64,000 bases of DNA from an uncultured delta proteobacterium. GTDB taxonomy: Bacteria > Desulfobacterota > Desulfobacteria > Desulfobacterales > Desulfosalsimonadaceae. The translations under genes were made by a program, and so were the position numbers. Positions 3,311 through 35,866 of this stretch are shown here, in pieces (the stretch's first letter is position 1; each line of letters starts with the position of its first letter). Below the pieces are notes generated by a model that was given only the letters and a program-made list of their open reading frames with translations, made no database searches and was not told the origin of the DNA. Where the stretch lies: positions 96,001-160,000 of the forward strand of contig CAWGYD010000001.1 of NCBI GenBank assembly GCA_963826785.1. The letters run 5' to 3'.

Positions 3311-3775
3311 TCAACTGCCGGGTTTTTTCGGGGTGACATACATGGTGATTTTTGCGCGGAACACGGTCTCGCCGGAAGGGTTTTTGACCTCTACGGGTAC
3401 GATGACATCGCCGGGGGTGATCCGGTCCGCCGGAATTTCGGAGGTGCCGGTCAGCGTGCCTTTGGCTTTTTTCAGGTATTCCACCGTCATTTTACGGGGG
3501 ATCCACCGCAGATTGACCGGCGTGGCCGCTTCCAGGGCCAGGCCACCGGCAAGCTCGGCCATGTTGCACATGACGATGGCATGCACCGTGTTGAGATGGT
3601 TGCGCACCCGTTTCCGGTCTTTGACGACCACGCTGCATCTGCCGGGGGAAAGGTGGGTAATCAGCGGCCGGATGGTTTTGAAATAGGGCGCCTTTGCCGC
3701 CACCAGGCGTGAAAAAACCTGCCTGCCCAGGGGCCATGCCGACAGCCGCTGATAGATACTGAGCGTTTTGCTCAT
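3311..3775 (-). CDS. Hotdog-fold thioesterase (PaaI/DUF4442-like)
   Basis: KAPYFKTI..RNHLNTVHAIVMCNMAELAGG..WIPRKMTVEYLKKAKG pattern. Confidence 0.85.
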   Translation of the reverse strand: MSKTLSIYQRLSAWPLGRQVFSRLVAAKAPYFKTIRPLITHLSPGRCSVVVKDRKRVRNHLNTVHAIVMCNMAELAGGLALEAATPVNLRWIPRKMTVEYLKKAKGTLTGTSEIPADRITPGDVIVPVEVKNPSGETVFRAKITMYVTPKKPGS

Positions 3776-4970: not shown

Positions 4971-7900
4971 ATGAAAATGATCGGGTTTTCTCATTCGGGG
5001 AGGAACGCCATGGTCCGGAGCGGGTTGCCTGTCGAACACATCCAGGAGGTTCTCGAGGAAATCAACAGCATCATCATCGGCCTCGATGCCGAAGGGCGGA
5101 TCACATTCTTGAACCGGTTCAGCGAAGATCTGTTCGGCTATTCCAGGGATGAAGCGCTTGGAAAACCCCTGGTGGGAACCTTCCTTCCGGAAAAGGAAAG
5201 TTCGGGCAAAGACAATTCCGGGCTGGTTCAAAGCATCATCCAATTTCCCGCCAAACACTACATCAATGAATCCGAGGGCATCAGAAAAAACGGGGAACGG
5301 GTCTGGATTTCCTGGAGCGCCCGGCTGGTTCTGGATGAACAGGGAAATGCGGCAGAAATCTTCATCGACGGAAATGATGTGACGCAGCAGCATCAACAGG
5401 GACTCAAGGCCCGGGAAGCCTACGAAATGATCAATCAGTCACCGGACCTGGTGATCCGACTGGATGCGAAACGAAGATACCTGTTTGTCAACCGCGCCTT
5501 TTCAGAAACCGCCGGTGTGCCGCCGGAAGACATTCTGGGCAAACGCGGGGAGGTCCACCTGCCGAAGCAAACGGTCAAATTCATCACAGAAGCACTGGAT
5601 CGCGCAGCAGAAGCGCATGACGAGATCACCGCCGAGATCCCCTATGGTGAGCGCTGGTTTTTGTCCACGGTCAAACCGGTGTTCGGGGAAAACGAACGCA
5701 TTGAATCGTTCATGATTTTTGCAAAGGATATTACCCGGCGGCGGCATGCCGCAGAAAGCGCACTGAAAGCCCAGCAGCAGGCGACTGAAAGCGAAGCCCG
5801 TTTCCGCACGGTCCTGGAAAATTCCCTGGATGCGGCTTACCGCCGGGACCTGCGCACCGATGCCTATGACTACCTCAGCCCGGTGATCGAAAAGATCACC
5901 GGGTACAGTGTCGATGAATTTGCGAGTATGGATACGGATGCCATCATGTCCGTCATCCATCCCGACGACCAAAGCCGGGTGAACGGGAGCATGGCCGCCG
6001 CGCTGGATTCCGAGAGCGGCTCCGGGCGGATCGTTTACCGGCTGAAGGGAAAAGACGGGTCTTATCGCTGGCTGTCGGACAACATGATCGTGGTCAAAGA
6101 TGAGACCGGCACCCCGGTCTACCGTGTGGGAAATGTGCGCGACGTCACGCAATCCATGCAGCTGCAGGAAGAGTTGCAGAATTCCAAGGAAACGGCCGAA
6201 AAACGGGCACGGGAAGCCGAAGAGGGGGAGCAGATACTGGAGGCTATCCTGGAGCATGTCCCCGAAGGGCTTTCCATTGTGGATGCCCAGAGCCGGAAGG
6301 TATTGACGGTCAGCCGATATCTGGCGCAATTTGTCGGAAAAGAGCGGGGGGATTTTGAAGGCATTCCCCTTGCGCAGTACCTGGAAACCTTCAACGCCGC
6401 CCGCATCGACGGCACGCCCATCGAGGCGGACGAGGCGCCCATGTGGCGCTCCATTTACCTGGGGGAAACGGTGGTCAACGAACAGTACCTGCTCAGCACC
6501 CACAGCGGGGAGCAAATCAGCGTCCTGGTCAATACCGCCCCGATCCTGGACCGCGGCGGAAGGATTGTGGGCGGGATCGCCACCTGGCGAAATGTCGAAC
6601 CCCTGATTCAGGCGGAAAAGGAATTGAAAGTCTCCCGGGATGCCGCCGAAGAAGCCGCCCGTCTGGCCGAGGATCAGCAGCGAATTTTAGAAGCCATCCT
6701 GGTCAGCATCCCCGAAGCGATTATCGTCCTGGAAGCCCCCGAAGGCCGCCTGCGGCTGGCCAGCCGGTATTATACGGAATTCGTGGGGGTCGCCCCTGAA
6801 AAGCTTCTGGAATCCTCCATGTCGGAAAGAATCGGCGGCGTGCTGTCCGGGTTTTCCGGTTACCGCAACGGATCCGAATCCGAAAAATATCCGGCGGCCC
6901 GGGCGCTGGCGGGTGAAACGATCATGGATGAGGAATGGCATGTGAAGAAACCGGACGGGAGCACCGCGGTGATATCGATTGCGGCAGCCCCGGTCCGGGA
7001 TGCTACGGGTTTGATCACCCACGCGGTGGTGGGCTGGCGGGACATCACGGTATCCAAGGAGATGGAAACGGTCCTCCGTCGCAGCGAGCACGAATTAAAA
7101 ACGCTGGTGGAAAGCTCCCCGGACATCATCATCCGCATGGACCGGGGCATGCGCTACATCTTTGCCAACGCCACCTATGAGCGGATCGCGGGAGTTTCGC
7201 GGGAAAGCCTGAAGGGAAAGACCAACCAGTCGCTGGGGATGCCCGAGGAGCAGTCCCGGCAGTGGGAGGAAACCATGCGCAAGGTCATCCGCACGGGCCG
7301 GGAAACCAATATCGAGTTTTCTTTTTCCGGTCTGTTCGGCACCCGTTTTTTCTGGGGGCGGATCATTCCCGAATTTGACAAGAACGGCATGGTGGAATCG
7401 GTGATGATGGTGGCCCGGGACATCACCGAGCGCAAGCGGGCCGAGGCCCACATCCGGTATGTCAGCTTCCATGACAATGTCACCGGTCTGTACAACCGGG
7501 CCTACTTCGAAGAAGAGGTCAACCGCTTAGACACCGTGCGCTCCCTGCCGGTAAGCTTCATCATGGGCGACGTGAACAACCTGAAGCTGGTCAATGATGC
7601 CTTCGGTCACAACGAAGGCGATATCCTGCTCAAGGCCATCGCCGATATCCTGAGGGAAGCCTGCCGGGAAAGCGATATCATCGCCCGGTGGGGGGAGACG
7701 AGTTTGCCGTCATCCTGCCCCATACGGATCTGGCCACCACCCGGGAAGTGATGAACCGGATCCGGGCCGTGTCACAGCAGCGTGCCGGCACGGCGGTTCC
7801 GGCCAGCATTTCCCTGGGCGTTGCGGTAAAGTCCAGCGACAGGGAAAACATTTATCATATCATCCGGATGGCCGAAGCGGAAATGTACGATGACAAACTG

Positions 7901-8470
7901 CTCCGGAGCCGGGAGAATCATGAGCGGGTCATCGCCGCACTTCTGGCGAGGGTTCATGAAAGCCGGCCGGATCTTGCGCATCACACCCGGCGGGCACAGG
8001 CCCATGTCCGGACCTTCGGGGCCGCCATGGGTTTAAGTGATTCCCAGATGGAAAACATGGAACTGATGGCGCGCCTTCACGATATTGGTAAAGCAGTGAT
8101 CCCCAAAGAGGTGATCCAGAAGCAGGGACGGTTGAATGACCAGGAGTGGCAGATCATGAAACGCCATCCCGAGGCCGGCTACCGGATCGTCAAAACCTTT
8201 GCTGAAACCGCCCGGATTTCAGATGATATACTGGCCATCCGGGAGCGGTGGGATGGCACCGGATACCCCCGGGGTCTGAAAAAAGAGAAAATCCCCTACC
8301 TGGCCCGGATGTTTTCCATCATCGACGTATTTGACGCCATGACCCATGAACGGCCCTATGGGCGGGTGTACACCGCAAAGGAAGCCGCCGTGCAGATCCG
8401 GGAGAATGCGGGCGCGCAGTTCGATCCAAAGCTTGCGGAAGCCTTTGTCCGGACCATTCTGACGGAATAA
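4971..8470 (+). CDS. Multi-PAS diguanylate cyclase/HD-GYP protein, split by a 1-nt deletion in a G run at about 7690 (ORFs 4971-7751 and 7688-8470)
   Basis: Several PAS/PAC repeats, HDNVTGLYNR, then RW|GGDEF across the frameshift (6 G present, 7 needed), then LHDIGK and WDGTGYP. The neighbouring paralogue is continuous across this point. Confidence 0.88.
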
Positions 8471-15953: not shown

Positions 15954-17141
15954 TTACTGCGTCTGGATGGCAAACCGGAGCAGCGCCCCGATGCCGTGTC
16001 TGGCAAAATCCGCGTGATCGGTGAACACATGCTCGATTTTCGCGTCCTGCTGAAGGGCGAAATCGATCAACTCGTCGGGAAGATAAACCGTGTGCCGCAT
16101 GGACTGGCCGCACATGGGACAGGACTGCTCCATGGAGGAGAGGATCCGGTCGTTGTCGCAGATGAATCCCTCGGCATGAAAATCATGGTTCATCACCAGG
16201 GTATGCACCTGGCCCAGACCCAGCGCCTTGATGACGGGATCCAGTCCGACGACGCTCAGCCCCTGGGGGCCGCATTTCTCAAAAAGATCCTGCAGGACCT
16301 GCTCCTCACGGGCGCGTTCCCACCGGGCGGCCGCGGCAAGCGCCTTTTCCTTGAGCTGGGGTGTGGGATCATCCGGCTGTGCGGAAAATTCACCGGCCAG
16401 GCGTTCCTGAAGGTAGCTGTGCAGGTGCGTCTTGAGCCGGGGGAGCGTCTTGTCCTCGGGACCGGCCAGGATCAGCCTCGAAAATCCCTCTTCCTTGAAA
16501 TAATCAAACACCCGGGCGGCCACGGCCTTCAAGTGTTTGTGCATGTGCTCCTTGATGTGCCGGTCGATTCCCTGGGAGCCGTATCCGCTCTGCACCTCCG
16601 TTTCGTTTCTCGTGATCATGCCCCTGCGGGCGTCGCTTGCGCCCACCCGGTCCGGCACCTCGCTTTCCATGAAAATATCGGGTTCCGGCTCCAGCGCGCC
16701 CATGTGCAGCGAAAAAATCCGGGCTTTGCGTGAATCAACCACCAGCACCAGGTAGCGTTCAAATTCATCCAGCAGAACGGAGAGCGGCCGGGTGTAGGGA
16801 TCCGAGTTGATCACCATCCGGCTGGGCCGGTCCATCGGCAGCAGGTATTCCTTGAAAATGCCGTCCATGTCTGCAAAAAGCGCCACCAGGCGGGTTTGTT
16901 TCAGCGGTTTGAGATGGTTGACATAGGTCTTTAAGGTATCAAACGTCTTTTCCAGATCCCGCACCCGGTCCTTGTCCACGCCGCCGTCCTGCTTCATTTC
17001 GGTGAGGGCCTGATGGGCCAGGGAATTGATCTCCGTCTCGATGCGCCGGAGGGGTTGGACGTTCAGATAGAGACTGACCACCGGGGGAGACTTGCTTTCA
17101 AACCGGCTCAATTCTTCGATTTCATTTCTTTCGATTACCAT
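15954..17141 (-). CDS. Bacterial archaeo-eukaryotic release factor-like protein (baeRF, eRF1/pelota fold; probably family 10)
   Basis: VVSLYLNV, PYTRPL, YLVLVVDSRKARIF, RLILAGP, GQVHTLV, a C..CPMCG Zn-ribbon insert and a C-terminal GIGALLRF typical of aRF1-like proteins. Confidence 0.82.
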   Translation of the reverse strand: MVIERNEIEELSRFESKSPPVVSLYLNVQPLRRIETEINSLAHQALTEMKQDGGVDKDRVRDLEKTFDTLKTYVNHLKPLKQTRLVALFADMDGIFKEYLLPMDRPSRMVINSDPYTRPLSVLLDEFERYLVLVVDSRKARIFSLHMGALEPEPDIFMESEVPDRVGASDARRGMITRNETEVQSGYGSQGIDRHIKEHMHKHLKAVAARVFDYFKEEGFSRLILAGPEDKTLPRLKTHLHSYLQERLAGEFSAQPDDPTPQLKEKALAAAARWERAREEQVLQDLFEKCGPQGLSVVGLDPVIKALGLGQVHTLVMNHDFHAEGFICDNDRILSSMEQSCPMCGQSMRHTVYLPDELIDFALQQDAKIEHVFTDHADFARHGIGALLRFAIQTQ

Positions 17142-17326
17142 AAGGGCATCCTTTCCCGAATCGTCTGTTACAGGATACAGCATTCGTCCAGCATTACAAA
17201 GGCTCGATTTTTTTGCCGGATAATGAATGACTTTATAGAAAAACATGATGCCGGAAGGCGCTTGTGTCAAGGATGCGGCGCAACTGGCGGGATTTTCGAT
17301 TTGAAGCGGTTCGGGAGCCGGTTCGT

Positions 17327-30682: not shown

Positions 30683-31622
30683 TCAGGTCCCTTCCCGGGT
30701 GATGCTCGACGGGGGTTTGTCCCTGCTGAGCCCCTTGAAACTGGGATGGCGCAGCCGTCCGTCTTTGGTCCATTCCGAGAACTCGACATCCCCGACGTAC
30801 TTCGGTGTCACCCAGTGGACATCCTGGGTCGGCACGTCACCGGTTGCAAAAGGGGAAGTCTTGCGTTCATCGCGCAGCAGTTTTCTGCTGATGGAGCGCA
30901 GCATGTCATTGTCATACCCGCTGCCCACCTTGCCGGCATAGCACAGTTGACCATTTTCATAGTAACCCACCAGAAGCGCGCCGAATCCGATGCGGTTTCC
31001 CCTGGGTTCCGTATATCCGCCGATAACGAAATTCTGCCGGCGGGCGGATTTAAAAGAAGTCTTTTCCCGGAAATCGCCATGGGCATCCGGGACGGCAAGG
31101 TCGCAGTCGTCGAAACTCTGCGCGGTTTCCTCGAATCGAAGCGGATCGGTGAAATGAAATATCCGCTTCAGCACGTTTTTCCGGTCCGCCAGCATCAATC
31201 CGGAGATGTCGTATCCATCTGCAAACAGCAGGTCGAATATATAATAAACCGTCTCCGGCGTCTCTGTTGTCCCGTATTCCGGGCCCGGGTCCGGCGGTCT
31301 CGTCGAAAGGGACGATTTGCGCGCCAATGGTCACGATCTTTCCGTCCACAATGAAGTTTTTGCATTCCTGAACGCGCAGCGCTTTCACTAGATGCGGGTA
31401 CTTCTGGTTCAGGTCTTTTCGGCTTCGGGACATGAGCGTCAGATCATTGCCGTTTCGAAATGCCAGGCATCGTTCGCCGTCGAGTTGTTCATATATCCAG
31501 TCCGGATCGGAAAACGGGTCCTGGGCCAGCGTGGCGGACACGGGCTGGGTCCATTCCGAAACCGGTATTTTGCGGATCCTGAACTGTTCGTCTTCAGGAA
31601 TCAGGTTTAACAGATCATTCAT
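30683..31622 (-). pseudogene. Degenerate LigD/LigC-type ATP-dependent DNA ligase (frameshift near 31320; catalytic motifs lost)
   Basis: WIYEQLDGERCL (motif I, Lys missing), IFDLL, and an intact OB domain (FVIGGYTEPRG..GALLVGYY..YAGKVGSG..EWTKDGRLRHPSF). Confidence 0.8.
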
Positions 31623-31809: not shown

Positions 31810-32640
31810 CTAAAGGTGCGTTCCGCAGTATTTGCAGAACGCCGCATCCAGGTCATGGCCTTCAGCGCCGCAGGCCGGGCAGGCCTGGGTGGAGACCGGC
31901 TTTTTCCGGGAAGCTTCCGTCATTTCCACGGTGACGATCCCGGTGGGCACCGCGATGATGCCATACCCCAGAACCATGACCACGCAGGCCAGGGTTTTTC
32001 CCAGGGGGGTCTGGGGGGACAGGTCTCCGTACCCGACGGTGGTGAGCGTGACAATGGACCAGTAAATGCTGGTGGGGATATCGGTAAATCCGTGGGTTTC
32101 GCCTTCGATGACGTACATGACCGATCCGATGAGGATGGTGATGGTGAATACGGCAAACAGAAACACGCTGATCTTGCGGCGGCTGGCTTTGAGCGCACTG
32201 GTGAGGACGTGTGCTTCCCCCAGGTAAGCCGAAAGTTTGAAAACCCTGAAGATGCGCAGGAGGCGGAGAATACGGATGGTGAGCAGGGTCTGGCTGCCGG
32301 GGATGGCGATACTGATGTAGGTGGGGATGACGGCCAGCAGGTCGACGATCCCGAAAAAGGAAATTGCATAGGAAAGGGGCCGCGACACGCTGATCAGCCG
32401 GAGCGCGTATTCCACGGTGAACAGGAGGGTGAAAAACCATTCAATCCCATAGAGGATGCGGCCGTAGGACCGGTGAATGCCGCCGACGCTGTCGAAGATG
32501 ATGGTGGCCACGCTGATGACGATACTGGCAATCAGGATGACGTCAAACGCCTTGCCCGCCGGCGTGTCGGCCTCGAAAATGATTTCGTGCAGTTTGCGCC
32601 GCCAGGGTGCGGTTAACCGGGCGGCGGGTCTGTCGCTCAT
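31810..32640 (-). CDS. Voltage-gated potassium channel-type ion transporter
   Basis: S4 helix RILRLLRIFRVFK, pore signature TTVGYGD and C-terminal CPAC..CKYC. Confidence 0.93.
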   Translation of the reverse strand: MSDRPAARLTAPWRRKLHEIIFEADTPAGKAFDVILIASIVISVATIIFDSVGGIHRSYGRILYGIEWFFTLLFTVEYALRLISVSRPLSYAISFFGIVDLLAVIPTYISIAIPGSQTLLTIRILRLLRIFRVFKLSAYLGEAHVLTSALKASRRKISVFLFAVFTITILIGSVMYVIEGETHGFTDIPTSIYWSIVTLTTVGYGDLSPQTPLGKTLACVVMVLGYGIIAVPTGIVTVEMTEASRKKPVSTQACPACGAEGHDLDAAFCKYCGTHL

Positions 32641-32667: not shown

Positions 32668-33006
32668 TTAATGGTGATGGACACCCTCCGAGTGCCCGCC
32701 GGCAATGATGTAAACCGCTTCATGAGACGAGGGGTTTTCCACGAAAACACTTTGCTCCCCGACAATATGAAAAACTTCTCCTTCGTGCAGGGTGCCCGTG
32801 AATTCACCGGTGAGATGAAGGATCCCCTTTGCGGCCATCACCATTTCCTCGTGCCCTTTGCCGGGTTTGACCAGGCGCTGTTTCTCGCCGGGTTTAAGAT
32901 ATCCGTAAATCATGTAGCAGGCATGGCTGCCGGTGTCCTGAAGGCCGAAAACGGACTCGCCTTCTTTTTCAGCCAGGGCCCGGCTTTTCAGATCGACTTT
33001 TTTCAT
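32668..33006 (-). CDS. Cupin-like protein, last gene of the putative RiPP operon
   Basis: Beta-rich sequence with GHEEMV..GILHL..LHEGEVFHI..VENP cupin-like pattern and a His-rich C-terminus; RBS CAGGAG before the ATG at 33006. Confidence 0.7.
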   Translation of the reverse strand: MKKVDLKSRALAEKEGESVFGLQDTGSHACYMIYGYLKPGEKQRLVKPGKGHEEMVMAAKGILHLTGEFTGTLHEGEVFHIVGEQSVFVENPSSHEAVYIIAGGHSEGVHHH

Positions 33007-33058
33007 GTTCAGCTCTCCTGTGGGCGGTTTGCTTTTGAGTTGGCTGTCTCTTTTACGT

Positions 33059-33981
33059 TCAAGGCGCGATGCATCGGGGATCCGGTGCAGCAAGGTCCCC
33101 GTAAAACTGATAGCTCATGGCCGGGCATCCGCCATGGCAGTGCGCGTGCAGGCTGCAGGTCGTGATCCGGGCACCGGTTTTTCTCAAAGGATTGGAAAAA
33201 CCCGAGGGCCGGGTGCCGCCGGATGTGATCGAAATTATCGGTCAGCAGGTTGCCCAGCCGAAATGCCGGGTACCGGAAGAACAGGTAGCATGGATATACA
33301 TCGCCGTTGGGCAGGACGGATAATTTGGTGGTGCCGGCCGGGCAGCGCCTGGATGCCAGGGAAGGGCAGGTTTGCACATCCGGGATGAACCCGGAGCAGA
33401 ACACGCCGTCAATTCCATTTCTGTTTTTTTTTAACTGCATCATGTGGTGAAAAAAAATGGGAAACGCCACACGGTCCGCAATGTCGGACCTGTCGGCCAG
33501 ATCCCGGTAAATCAGGTACCAGGTGATTCTGTCCATGCCGATGTAGGGGGCCGCCGCAGGCGGTATGGGCGCGTCCGGATAGAAGACGCTTTTCAGGATG
33601 GGCCGCTGATCGAGAATATAATCGTTTAGCGCCCGGCTGATTGGCGTGTCGTTGACGGAGATGCCGATGGTTACAGATGATGCGGGATAGGCGTCGGAAA
33701 GCGCCCTCAGGCGGTCCACCCGGGAGCCGTTTGAACTGACGGTGGTGCGCATGCCGCCGGTGTAAATCGTGTCCACCAGTTTTTCGATGTCCGGGTGCAG
33801 GGTGGGCTCTCCGCCCAGAAGATCGATATGGCCGACACCGGCCGATTTGAGAGAAGATGCCATCCGGGCAAACGCATCGGTTTTTACATCCGGCATACGG
33901 AAAAAGATGCCGGTTGAAGCAGAAATCGCAGGTAAGGTTGCACCGAAGGGTGGGATAGAACTGGATATAGGATAGCGTCAT
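33059..33981 (-). CDS. Radical SAM/SPASM domain protein 2, interrupted by two +1 frameshifts (about 33903 and 33168)
   Basis: CNLTCDFC in frame 1; GGEPTLHP, SSNG and CPAG..LPNGDVYPC..LGNL in frame 2; TCSLHAHCHGGCPA..PDPRC in frame 3, ending at the TGA at 33059. Confidence 0.85.
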
Positions 33982-34044
33982 TCGACTGACCTTACGGAAA
34001 AATAAGCGTGAAGACGCATCATGGCCAAGGCTCGATCGCAAATG

Positions 34045-35226
34045 TCAATCAGGCGATTTCAAGTGACTGTTCATCCCATAAACCGCGCACATGACCGGGT
34101 CTACGCCCAGGGGCGACTGGGCTCTGAAACGGCACCCGCCCCGGCATTCGTCTAAAACCGGACAATTGCGGCATTCCAGGCGATCCAGGGGGACATGTTC
34201 CAGGCGGTTCCAGCAGTCGGCCAGTCGGGCCCGGGCATCCCCCAGGGGTTCATCGCGGTAAAAACCGCATTTGACGGCATTGCCGTCGGGAAGGACGGTC
34301 ATCAGGTGGCGGCCGCAGGCATACCCCCCCGATGATCCGTGATAGCCGCCGCCGAAGGCATATGGGAACAGGCCGGCGGCCCGGTCATAGGGGACGGTCA
34401 GGTCCCGGTTAGACTCGAGTGAACCGGTGACCGACAGCACATCGATGCCCCATTCCACAGCCCCCACCTCTTCGATGAATGCCTGCATGGGATCAAATTC
34501 ATCCAGGTTGTCCCGGTGGATCATGGTGGATATGGAAACCGGGATGCCTGCTTTACGGGCGATGCGGATACCGTTTACCGTTCGTTCAAAGGTCCCGGCT
34601 CCCCGCAATGCCTCATGCCCCCGGGTCCATCCGTCCAGGCTGAACTGAATTTCATCGGCGTTTTGCAGCCATTTAGCGTTTTCTGCGGTGACCCGGGTCC
34701 CGTTGGTGAACAGCACCCGGCGGATGCCCAGGTTCCGGGTTTCTTCCAAAAAAAATTGCAGGTCCGGATGGAGCAGGGGTTCGCCGCCGGAGATGAGCAG
34801 CCGCAGCCCGCCCATCTCGGCAAATTGCCCCGTGATGCGCAATGCGTCATCGATGGGCAGCATCGCGGGCCGGGCCGGCCCCAGGTAGCAGTGCCGGCAT
34901 TTGAGATTGCACTGGTGCAGCAGGTGAAGCTCCAGGTACCGAAGCGATGGAATCGGACTCCGTGCGGCCGTTATGTTGATGGGTTCGGGGGCATTCAGCG
35001 CTTCTAAAATCCCTTCGGACAGTGCGTAACGGACGAATTCATCGTCATCCGTGAGTTCTTCCCCCGTGCGCCCGCCGGTGCAGCGCAACAGGAAATCGAG
35101 TGCGGATGAATCGATCTCATAGAGTTCGTCGCGCCCGATATGGTAGATAAAAGGCGTCTCCAGGACTTTGAGGGAGGCATCGGAAGACAGCCGCAGGTAG
35201 GAGCGGCGCCAGTCAGCTGGGATCAT
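34045..35226 (-). CDS. Radical SAM/SPASM domain protein 1 with putative N-terminal RiPP recognition element
   Basis: CNLKCRHC, SGGEPLLHP, FTNG and FSLDG; SPASM Cys set CG..KCGF..CRNCPVLDECRGGC..DPVMC; ~90-aa N-terminal three-strand plus helices segment. Confidence 0.92.
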   Translation of the reverse strand: MIPADWRRSYLRLSSDASLKVLETPFIYHIGRDELYEIDSSALDFLLRCTGGRTGEELTDDDEFVRYALSEGILEALNAPEPINITAARSPIPSLRYLELHLLHQCNLKCRHCYLGPARPAMLPIDDALRITGQFAEMGGLRLLISGGEPLLHPDLQFFLEETRNLGIRRVLFTNGTRVTAENAKWLQNADEIQFSLDGWTRGHEALRGAGTFERTVNGIRIARKAGIPVSISTMIHRDNLDEFDPMQAFIEEVGAVEWGIDVLSVTGSLESNRDLTVPYDRAAGLFPYAFGGGYHGSSGGYACGRHLMTVLPDGNAVKCGFYRDEPLGDARARLADCWNRLEHVPLDRLECRNCPVLDECRGGCRFRAQSPLGVDPVMCAVYGMNSHLKSPD

Positions 35227-35582
35227 TTTGAATCTTCCAGCATCTGCTTGTCCAAGAGGCCGTGTTTAAGGAGCAGATAAACGGCGATGTAGCCCCCGCA
35301 GGGTTCCGGATTTTCCGTTTCCGGGAGTTCGGATTGAAAATCGCAGTCTTTTTCCTTGAAATCGCAAAGGGCGCACACCTGTTCATCCAGCAGACCCCGA
35401 TGCCCTTCCCAGGTGTCGACGGTCTTGGGCAGATGCGCCACCGTCTCTTGCCGGATTTGGTATCTTTCCATGAGAGCCTGGGCCACCAGCGCCCCCCGGC
35501 AGGTCATTTCCTCTTTCTCTCCGGCTTTGAAATAGGTGCAGAAGGGGCGGCAGAGGTAATCGATATAATCTGTTTTGGGCAT
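35223..35582 (-). CDS. Cys-rich hypothetical protein (7 Cys)
   Basis: CRPFC..TC..CALC..DC..PCGG; stop overlaps the rSAM start (ATGA coupling). Confidence 0.8.
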   Translation of the reverse strand: MPKTDYIDYLCRPFCTYFKAGEKEEMTCRGALVAQALMERYQIRQETVAHLPKTVDTWEGHRGLLDEQVCALCDFKEKDCDFQSELPETENPEPCGGYIAVYLLLKHGLLDKQMLEDSK

Positions 35583-35608
35583 GAAATAACTTTGATTCCG
35601 TCAAAATA

Positions 35609-35642
35609 CGCAGCCCGCATGCGGAATGCATGACGGGCTGCG
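35609..35642 (-). terminator. GC-rich stem-loop between the peptide gene and the modifying-enzyme genes (leaky terminator or mRNA stabiliser)
   Basis: CGCAGCCCG/CGGGCTGCG outer stem plus CATGC/GCATG inner stem; followed on the minus strand by an interrupted T tract (TATTTTG). Confidence 0.65.
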
Positions 35643-35661
35643 GGGAATTGATTGATTCTGA

Positions 35662-35724
35662 TCAGCAGGAACGTTTACACTTGCAAAGACCGGTGGGTGC
35701 TTTTTTGACTTTTTTAATTTTCAT
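35662..35724 (-). CDS. Putative RiPP precursor peptide MKIKKVKKAPTGLCKCKRSC (20 aa)
   Basis: Manual translation; RBS GAAAGGAG 8 nt before the ATG; first ORF behind a strong promoter and directly upstream of the rSAM/SPASM genes. Confidence 0.8.
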   Translation of the reverse strand: MKIKKVKKAPTGLCKCKRSC

Positions 35725-35837
35725 GGCAGCTTCTCCTTTCTTCGTGAAAGTGTTGTGGAAAATCGACATGTCTGCTTATTTTGCATTTGGCGGAATTCTC
35801 CCGTCAAACGCTTTTCGTGTTCATCACGAATTAATAC

Positions 35838-35866
35838 ATTTTATCAGCTGAAAATGACTTTGTCAA
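35838..35866 (-). promoter_or_regulatory. Sigma70-type promoter for the peptide/rSAM operon
   Basis: The minus strand reads TTGACA-17 nt-TAAAAT, with an extended -10 TGn. Confidence 0.75.

Follow-up and report, generated by a model that had tools for sequence, protein, structure and literature searches.

Several described systems place a short conserved peptide gene next to a radical S-adenosylmethionine (SAM) enzyme with a SPASM domain. In SCIFF systems (CteB/Tte1186; TIGR03973/TIGR03974; ranthipeptides), a strongly conserved Cys peptide is encoded beside an enzyme that joins a RiPP recognition element (RRE; RiPP, a peptide made on the ribosome and modified post-translationally) to a radical SAM core and SPASM, with no protease or exporter known to be linked. 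PqqA/PqqD/PqqE and MftA/MftB/MftC likewise combine a short conserved peptide, an RRE and a radical SAM/SPASM enzyme, the product being intracellular. The unit analyzed here, on the minus strand at 32668-35866 of a 64,000-nucleotide stretch of DNA from an uncultured delta proteobacterium (the window; contig CAWGYD010000001.1), comprises a 20-codon Cys peptide gene, a seven-Cys protein, two radical SAM/SPASM enzymes (rSAM1 and rSAM2) and a cupin-like protein. We consider it reasonably probable that this is a RiPP-like modification cassette with the 20-residue peptide (20-mer) as the predicted substrate of rSAM1, and the 20-mer is most likely an undescribed enzyme-modified peptide.

A comparison with SCIFF shows peptides of about 45 residues and six Cys, against 20 residues and three Cys in this unit, and SCIFF systems have no extra seven-Cys partner such as the one present here. 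The SCIFF maturase model TIGR03974 is outside the best 25 of the 66 NCBIfam matches of rSAM1, and rSAM2 scores 29.5-41 bits with it against a cutoff of 425. The phyla of SCIFF also differ from those found here, which are represented by metagenome-assembled genomes (MAGs) of Desulfobacterales, Syntrophales, Geobacteraceae, Spirochaetota and Nitrospirota. At the structural level, 5why and 5wgg, both of CteB, superpose on residues 91-384 of the rSAM1 model with Z scores of 23.4 and 23.0. The matches of both enzymes of the unit include MftC and PqqE (72-80 bits for rSAM1 and 31-75 bits for rSAM2, with cutoffs of 265 and 381). However, unlike the Pqq and Mft systems, there is no conserved peptidase or follow-up oxidoreductase here to excise a small molecule. 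Moreover, the reactive residues are Glu and Tyr for PQQ and Val-Tyr for mycofactocin, whereas those presumed here are Cys.

The best folds for rSAM1 are those of SkfB, which matures the sporulation killing factor, and SuiB, which matures streptide, but with 18-19% identity; SkfB is also a sequence match (E 3.2e-12). The substrate peptides of these enzymes are unrelated to the 20-mer, and no Cys-rich partner is present in either case. SuiB forms a Lys-Trp carbon-carbon link, and the 20-mer, unlike the SuiB substrate, contains no Trp. The third-best NCBIfam match of rSAM1 is the StsB/StsA sactipeptide system (NF045574; 86.4 bits against a cutoff of 625). Cys2, Cys4 and Cys6 of StsA are linked to Gly residues (PMC10288494), and this close Cys spacing resembles the C-K-C of the 20-mer. 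The two sequences are nonetheless unrelated, and the 20-mer has no GxGxG acceptor motif. Finally, in the Crp system of Methanococcus voltae (CrpA/CrpC), an RRE-radical SAM-SPASM enzyme forms ranthionine links on a neighboring Cys-rich product (PMC13692751). CrpA is a large repeat protein with a 47-residue leader-like N terminus, whereas the Cys protein of the present unit is free of repeats and in many cases forms one chain with the enzyme. The Crp maturase family, TIGR04463, is not among the 25 rSAM1 NCBIfam matches listed.

For none of the five products is the cutoff of a curated family reached with the full-family models. The literature search found neither a description of this peptide system, as far as titles and abstracts tell, nor the string GLCKCK; genome-mining supplements may list the enzyme group unnamed. 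An earlier note on this DNA, made from the sequence, had judged the peptide to be unlike the SCIFF, mycofactocin, PQQ and selenobiotic precursors. In agreement with this, the 20-mer has no NCBIfam match at E ≤ 10, and a 35-residue extended open reading frame (ORF) matches no NCBIfam family at E ≤ 0.01, searches that have low power for such short queries. The gene is too short for gene callers, and both the peptide and the seven-Cys protein are without a curated family. If the modification were solved, radical SAM peptide chemistry would gain a new class of substrate and a new accessory domain, and sulfate reducers, syntrophs and their relatives could turn out to have a cofactor or metal ligand derived from a peptide.

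The 20-codon gene and its linkage to rSAM1

Among 40 relatives of the genome, nine have an rSAM1 orthologue (58-67% identity), and in eight of these nine loci there is an upstream 20-codon ORF that is 85-95% identical to the window peptide. In the same relatives, the identity of the Cys protein is only 38-48%, and that of the flanking proteins overall is 38-67%. For the ninth relative, the contig ends 225 nucleotides upstream of the Cys protein, and that stretch contains no peptide ORF.

A scan anchored on the Cys protein, taking one genome per species, gave 60 loci, or 61 with the window. The peptide gene is found in 54 of the 61, counting the window, as the earlier note had predicted for a conserved Lys/Cys-rich short ORF in homologous loci. 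Its start codon is ATG in 48 of these genes, TTG in four and GTG in one, the remaining gene being cut by a contig end. The seven loci without the peptide are five solo Cys-protein homologues with no adjacent rSAM1 and two loci with just 9 and 225 nucleotides of upstream sequence. All 60 scan matches are titled as MAGs or single-cell genomes, from Desulfobacterales, Desulfosalsimonadaceae, Syntrophales, Syntrophorhabdales, Geobacteraceae, Spirochaetota and Nitrospiraceae. The linkage was also followed in the reverse direction, using a degenerate peptide pattern alone on metagenome contigs, where at least 120 stretches matched. Among the matches listed, a profile search located the Cys protein and rSAM1 in 32 of the 38 peptide-pattern loci with at least 2000 nucleotides downstream. 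Taken in both directions, this linkage between peptide and maturase supports the RiPP cluster that had been proposed from the window.

The peptide ORF occurs in 121 distinct DNA versions, every one of them with 20 codons and a Cys codon before the stop, and all three stop codons are in use. Position 12 takes all four Gly codons, position 13 all six Leu codons and position 3 all three Ile codons, and the invariant Cys residues also show every synonymous codon. Because the peptide is more conserved than its flanking proteins and every synonymous codon is used at invariant positions, selection would act at the amino acid level, and on these comparisons the peptide gene is real. The search pattern and regular expression fixed M1, I3, K5, G12, L/M13, C14, C16 and C20, so that invariance at these positions is partly imposed. 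In the Cys-protein-anchored set, where Lys15 had been left free, all 43 distinct peptides have it, and 39 of the 43 have Ser19. The resulting layout is a Lys-rich N-terminal half, MKIKKVKK, and an invariant C-terminal part of the form G-L-C-K-C-x3-C-COOH. That the peptide is conserved across phyla, and more strongly than the enzymes beside it, speaks for a target or role in the cell that is itself conserved and not for a strain-specific antibiotic.

Other arrangements of the gene are also found. Tandem, slightly differing copies of the 20-mer lie upstream of one enzyme set in three loci (L029, 321-519; L035, 3244-3440; and L101). In two further loci (L147, with the peptide at 3501-3563, and L115), the order is inverted, so that the 20-mer gene comes last, after genes for an rSAM1-like enzyme and a class I methyltransferase and a cupin-like ORF; L147 is outside the 38 loci scored for downstream genes. 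Also, orphan 20-mers (MKIKKIAKVSKGLCKCKGSC and a variant) are present at 3501-3563 in three metagenome contigs (L090, L129 and L156), with no enzyme within 3.5 kb and flanked by a TetR-like gene and a short-chain dehydrogenase. Other neighbors, read by eye, are what we take to be HypA, HypB, HypF and a hydrogenase maturation protease. These three contigs are near-identical and count as one observation.

rSAM1, the seven-Cys protein and a proposed mechanism

rSAM1 contains the radical SAM domain PF04055 (Pfam, E 2.5e-24). Its CX3CX2C motif is formed by C106, C110 and C113, which are invariant in 29 sequences, as are the SPASM-type residues C304, C320, C352, C355, C361, C365 and C380. The SPASM pattern consists of seven Cys arranged as CX9-15GX4C ... 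CX2CX5CX3C ... C, and the spacing of the C-terminal Cys of rSAM1, read from the sequence, is canonical. Moreover, the AlphaFold model of rSAM1, with a predicted local distance difference test score (pLDDT) of 91.5 and a predicted template modeling score of 0.91, superposes on SPASM enzymes through residue 385-391. The assignment of a SPASM domain to rSAM1 would then be based on the Cys pattern together with the predicted fold.

Fold matches of rSAM1 lie at Z scores of 23-27. The best is SkfB (Z 27.1, root mean square deviation 4.6, 326 aligned residues, model residues 15-373), followed by SuiB (Z 25.8, root mean square deviation 3.7, 346 aligned residues, model residues 11-385 against chain residues 2-439). 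Among the top matches, no others extend over the N-terminal domain (from residue 10-15), whereas viperins, anSME, CteB, ChlB and PqqE superpose only from residue ~91. The N terminus (residues ~1-90) is modeled as strands at 10-37 followed by helices at 40-70, which on the fold only suggests a winged-helix, RRE-like domain. In the NCBIfam comparison, rSAM1 matches 66 families, all of them far under cutoff. StsB, ScmE, NirJ, MftC and PqqE score 72-86 bits over core residues ~95-280, and the best family, AhbD, reaches 91 bits against a cutoff of 500. On these scores, the enzymes are members neither of AhbC/AhbD/NirJ, which in the earlier note would have counted against a RiPP cluster, nor of any other named family, with ScmE/F, SbtM, GeoRSP and ACGX among those compared.

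The seven Cys of the partner protein are C11, C15, C28, C70, C73, C80 and C95. Only C95 among them is not invariant, and 14 of 15 homologues have it. The spacing is conserved (C-x3-C-x12-C ... C-x2-C-x6-C-x14-C), as are the acidic neighbors of its Cys (EDCDF and KEEMAC). The protein has no Pfam or NCBIfam match. Its predicted model is weak and all-helical (pLDDT 66), and Foldseek found nothing for it in the PDB at E ≤ 0.001, while its ESM Atlas matches are only unnamed clusters of Thermodesulfobacteriota and Nitrospirota. An exhaustive profile search gave 235 representative clusters of the family at E ≤ 1e-3, which, together with the metagenome stretches that carry the peptide pattern, makes the system widespread in uncultured anaerobes.

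The domain is also found in longer proteins. In two of them (P0081 and P0101, ~505 residues), it precedes an RRE-like domain and a radical SAM core, and in another (P0132, 233 residues), it precedes a cupin. Among the 100 loci that have both, the seven-Cys domain and rSAM1 share one open frame in 14, the Cys domain being N-terminal. A word-index search gave no longer fused forms; the profile search recovered them, so the former result was a miss of sensitivity. On the other hand, solo homologues without any radical SAM enzyme exist (L037, L060, L080 and L081). From the sequence comparisons, the seven-Cys protein is a new family and the partner of rSAM1. Because of its fusions to the enzyme and to the cupin, it is likely an accessory maturase domain that binds a metal or a cluster, rather than a substrate. 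A complex prediction of rSAM1 with the seven-Cys protein scored 0.00 in a run made with no control, and it has no weight either way. In a separate case, a protein of 474 residues (P0087), the seven-Cys domain follows a response-regulator-PAS-HisKA_3 arrangement at the C terminus, which is either a true fusion or a gene-calling artefact.

In the proposed mechanism, the 20-mer would be the substrate of rSAM1. Its Lys-rich half would probably be held by the winged-helix domain at the N terminus of the enzyme, so that the G-L-C-K-C-x3-C-COOH part would face the active site of the radical SAM domain and both SPASM clusters. The most likely reaction would be a radical one that closes at least one Cys thioether cross-link within the peptide, because this is the chemistry of similarly built enzymes with Cys peptides as substrates. 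The seven-Cys protein would be a partner domain that the maturase cannot do without, and it probably binds a metal or an iron-sulfur cluster. Optional tailoring or handling would fall to rSAM2, in whose place other lineages have a methyltransferase, and to the His-tailed cupin. The hairpin behind the peptide gene would let the peptide message exceed that of the enzymes. Finally, the product is probably the full-length peptide acting inside the cell, given that no protease or exporter is linked and that the whole 20-mer is conserved.

Weighing the alternatives

Several observations weigh against a cassette in which rSAM1 modifies the 20-mer. Six of the 38 peptide-anchored loci, among the matches listed, have no enzyme within 3.5 kb; one of these (L115) resembles the inverted locus L147, and the rest look like orphan peptide copies. 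A peptide of 20 residues leaves small space for a leader and a core. For rSAM1, Pfam gives no SPASM match at E ≤ 0.01, although it gives one for rSAM2, and none of 22 rSAM1 N termini has a PqqD/RRE match by sequence (Pfam, E ≤ 10). Also, the rSAM1 N-terminal domain finds nothing significant among PDB sequences, and the top-scoring NCBIfam models of the enzyme are heme enzymes (AhbD and NirJ), albeit far under their cutoffs. In addition, rSAM2 may be non-functional in this genome.

A first alternative, which is compatible with modification of the 20-mer by rSAM1, is that the product is a peptide-based metal ligand or cofactor, nickel and iron-sulfur being the candidates: the matured tri-Cys peptide, in the care of the seven-Cys domain and the cupin, would bind or deliver the metal. 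The three thiols and the C-terminal carboxylate of the peptide are invariant, as are His and Glu residues of the cupin, which ends in a GGHS..HHH tail; P0132 joins the Cys domain to a cupin, and export genes are not conserved. The orphan peptides lie beside genes whose translations look, by eye, like HypA, HypB and HypF; however, this neighborhood is effectively a single observation, with names taken from eye-read translations. Moreover, thioethers, if they are formed, would leave fewer thiols for metal binding, and the cupin is not found in 22 of 71 loci. With this balance, a metal ligand or cofactor is rather unlikely. Its most novel form would be a new ribosomally encoded and enzyme-matured thiolate ligand, the full-length 20-mer being cross-linked or remodeled in another way by rSAM1 on a seven-Cys metal or iron-sulfur scaffold and serving in anaerobes as an intracellular metal cofactor or in metal delivery, with the cupin handing it on. 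This proposal we likewise hold as doubtful.

The strongest rival to modification of the 20-mer is that the seven-Cys protein is itself the substrate, rSAM1 installing thioethers within the protein and the peptide having another role. Such chemistry has a parallel in QhpD, which cross-links QhpC by intraprotein thioethers. This possibility would be consistent with the seven conserved Cys and their conserved acidic neighbors, and with the translational coupling of the gene to rSAM1. A Cys-rich protein paired with an RRE-radical SAM/SPASM enzyme also has a precedent in CrpA/CrpC (PMC13692751). However, a domain that 14 of 100 loci have joined to the N terminus of the enzyme, and one representative to the cupin, fits a subunit better, and homologues exist with no radical SAM enzyme at all. 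Also, if the Cys protein were the substrate, the standing of the 20-mer as the most conserved gene would be left unexplained. We regard this alternative as unlikely.

The stretch behind the peptide gene brings in a different possibility. An 88-nucleotide segment containing the hairpin folds at -32.4 kcal/mol (z -5.2), and none of 200 shuffled sequences folds equally well. The consensus fold over 27 loci is a single hairpin of ten pairs, nine of them with compensatory changes, followed by a T-run. A simple terminator scan did not call the window's copy of the hairpin. In the same 27 loci, the spacer between the stop codon and the hairpin varies in length and sequence. A variable spacer with a lone hairpin fits a partial terminator or stabilizer and not an attenuator with alternative pairing, so the element is probably, from its sequence, a partial terminator or a transcript-stabilizing element. 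If the short ORF were instead a cis-regulatory leader, read-through past the hairpin into the genes for the Cys-rich protein and the iron-sulfur enzymes would depend on ribosomes translating its three Cys codons or stalling on it, and the enzymes would have another substrate. The order of a short ORF with three Cys codons and then a conserved terminator-like hairpin, upstream of Cys-rich genes, is what such a leader would look like. However, the full amino acid sequence and the length are conserved across phyla with synonymous changes, and the 27-locus alignment contains no conserved alternative (antiterminator) pairing along with its variable spacer. Moreover, the peptide gene is 3' of the enzymes in L147, and tandem and orphan copies of it exist. 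A leader role is then very unlikely.

It is most improbable that the enzymes belong to a non-peptide pathway (an AhbD/NirJ-like tetrapyrrole or another cofactor) with the small ORF being incidental: the top NCBIfam matches of rSAM1 are indeed AhbD, NirJ2, NirJ and AhbC (E 1e-26 to 1e-22), but scores of 80-91 bits against cutoffs of 500-650 reflect the shared radical SAM core alone (residues ~100-270), the peptide maturases StsB, ScmE and MftC score equally, the best folds are peptide maturases with the N-terminal domain included, the linkage to the peptide is tight in both directions, and no conserved tetrapyrrole gene is nearby in the 61 loci.

Layout of the unit, accessory genes and frameshifts

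The features of the unit that carries this predicted cassette are listed in Table 1. All the elements of the minus-strand order given in the earlier note (promoter, peptide, hairpin, seven-Cys protein, rSAM1, rSAM2 and cupin) were located. The region has six promoter-like sites, against 2.2 ± 1.7 in shuffled sequences. At the Shine-Dalgarno site, related loci keep the segment cttTCAxGAAGAAAGGAG. Further along the unit, the ATG of rSAM1 overlaps the stop codon (TGA) of the seven-Cys gene as ATGA.

Table 1. Positions in the window of the elements of the peptide unit, in the direction of transcription
Feature	Position	Strand	Basis
Sigma-70-type promoter-like site, TTGACA-17-TAAAAT with TG extension	35838..35866	-	11/12 matches; consensus match only
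Shine-Dalgarno AGGAG, 8 nucleotides 5' of the peptide ATG	35733..35737	-	Sequence
20-codon precursor-like peptide gene, MKIKKVKKAPTGLCKCKRSC, including stop codon	35662..35724	-	Cross-locus conservation
Stem-loop 3' of the peptide gene, then short U-run	35609..35642	-	Folding and covariation
Helical seven-Cys protein, 119 residues	35223..35582	-	Conserved Cys; fusions to rSAM1
Radical SAM/SPASM enzyme 1 (rSAM1), 393 residues	34045..35226	-	PF04055, invariant Cys, predicted fold
Radical SAM/SPASM enzyme 2 (rSAM2), ~306 codons, without RRE, in three frames	33059..33981	-	Orthologues are single ORFs
Cupin-like protein, 112 residues, C-terminal GGHS..HHH tail	32668..33006	-	Family profile

ORF clustering in the 61 loci gave only three conserved protein groups: the radical SAM enzymes, the Cys protein and the cupin. 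No peptidase or exporter had been seen in the unit, and none is conserved among these loci either. The accessory genes were counted in 71 loci with enough sequence past rSAM1, some of the metagenome contigs being the same sequence as a MAG contig. Both rSAM2 and the cupin are present in 24 of them, including the frameshifted copy of the window and one truncated copy. The cupin only is found in 21, a class I methyltransferase instead in four, and none of these in 22. Accessory genes thus vary between the 71 loci as they do in RiPP clusters. Of the five-part unit first described, the peptide, the Cys protein and rSAM1 stand as the core, whereas rSAM2 and the cupin are only accessory. Thr is found at position 11 of the peptide in 24 of 24 loci with rSAM2 and in 11 of 47 without it, a comparison in which related genomes share both traits; it hints, as a lead only, that rSAM2 could act at or near Thr11.

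For the cupin-like protein of the window, there is no Pfam match at E ≤ 1, and Cupin_2 is matched by six of 17 family members (best E 1.7e-6, 28.1 bits against a cutoff of 27.2). The best PDB matches of the family profile are cupins, with E values from 0.004 to 0.9, and H52, E54 and H105 are invariant in the family. This weak but consistent sequence evidence suggests a divergent cupin. A voltage-gated-type ion channel with a C-terminal zinc ribbon (31813-32640, minus strand) has the same orientation as the cupin, begins 28 nucleotides past its stop codon and may share a transcript with the unit in this genome; among the 61 loci, ORF clustering shows no conserved ion channel beside the cassette.

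Both radical SAM/SPASM enzymes first reported are present, but rSAM2 does not read as a single open frame; it takes three frames, one for the CX3CX2C part, one for the middle and one for the SPASM end. The first break corresponds to one extra T in a T5 run at 33901-33905 and the second to one extra C at ~33158-33159. In seven orthologous loci, rSAM2 is a single frame of roughly 300 residues. The intact orthologue reaches at best 75.4 bits against a cutoff of 265 with a full-family model, and it passes only the generic SPASM domain model (51.2 bits against 27). Programmed frameshifting was considered and rejected: the two sites share no common motif, and the orthologues read straight through. 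In this genome, rSAM2 would be either a pseudogene or an assembly error. The genome has only 11 contigs but 87.8% completeness, as would be expected if long reads had been assembled and indel errors had remained. Against this, 47 of the 71 scorable loci are without rSAM2. The gene is absent in G028 (L014), and a 111-codon remnant of it is left in G007 (L016). Since it is absent or reduced in other loci, rSAM2 is dispensable by nature, and real decay is conceivable too.

Split or overlapping frames are also seen in other parts of the window. A PAS-GGDEF-HD-GYP protein on the plus strand is divided between ORFs at 4971-7748 and 7688-8467, with a frameshift at a G-run in the GGDEF signature near 7700. 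Positions 2-81 of the Pfam GGDEF model fall in the first ORF and 79-155 in the next (window 7640-7800), and this split seems due either to a wrong homopolymer length or to very recent pseudogenization. An ATP-dependent DNA ligase on the minus strand (30686-31622) has its adenylation domain at 31053-31622 and its C-terminal domain at 30686-31327, in overlapping frames, an apparent frameshift not far from the peptide unit. These two splits would speak for an assembly error in rSAM2 as well. Finally, at 15957-17270 on the minus strand, the ORFs of a bacterial eRF1-like (baeRF family 10) protein, a methyltransferase and an Lcl C-terminal domain protein overlap, possibly because of further frameshifts.

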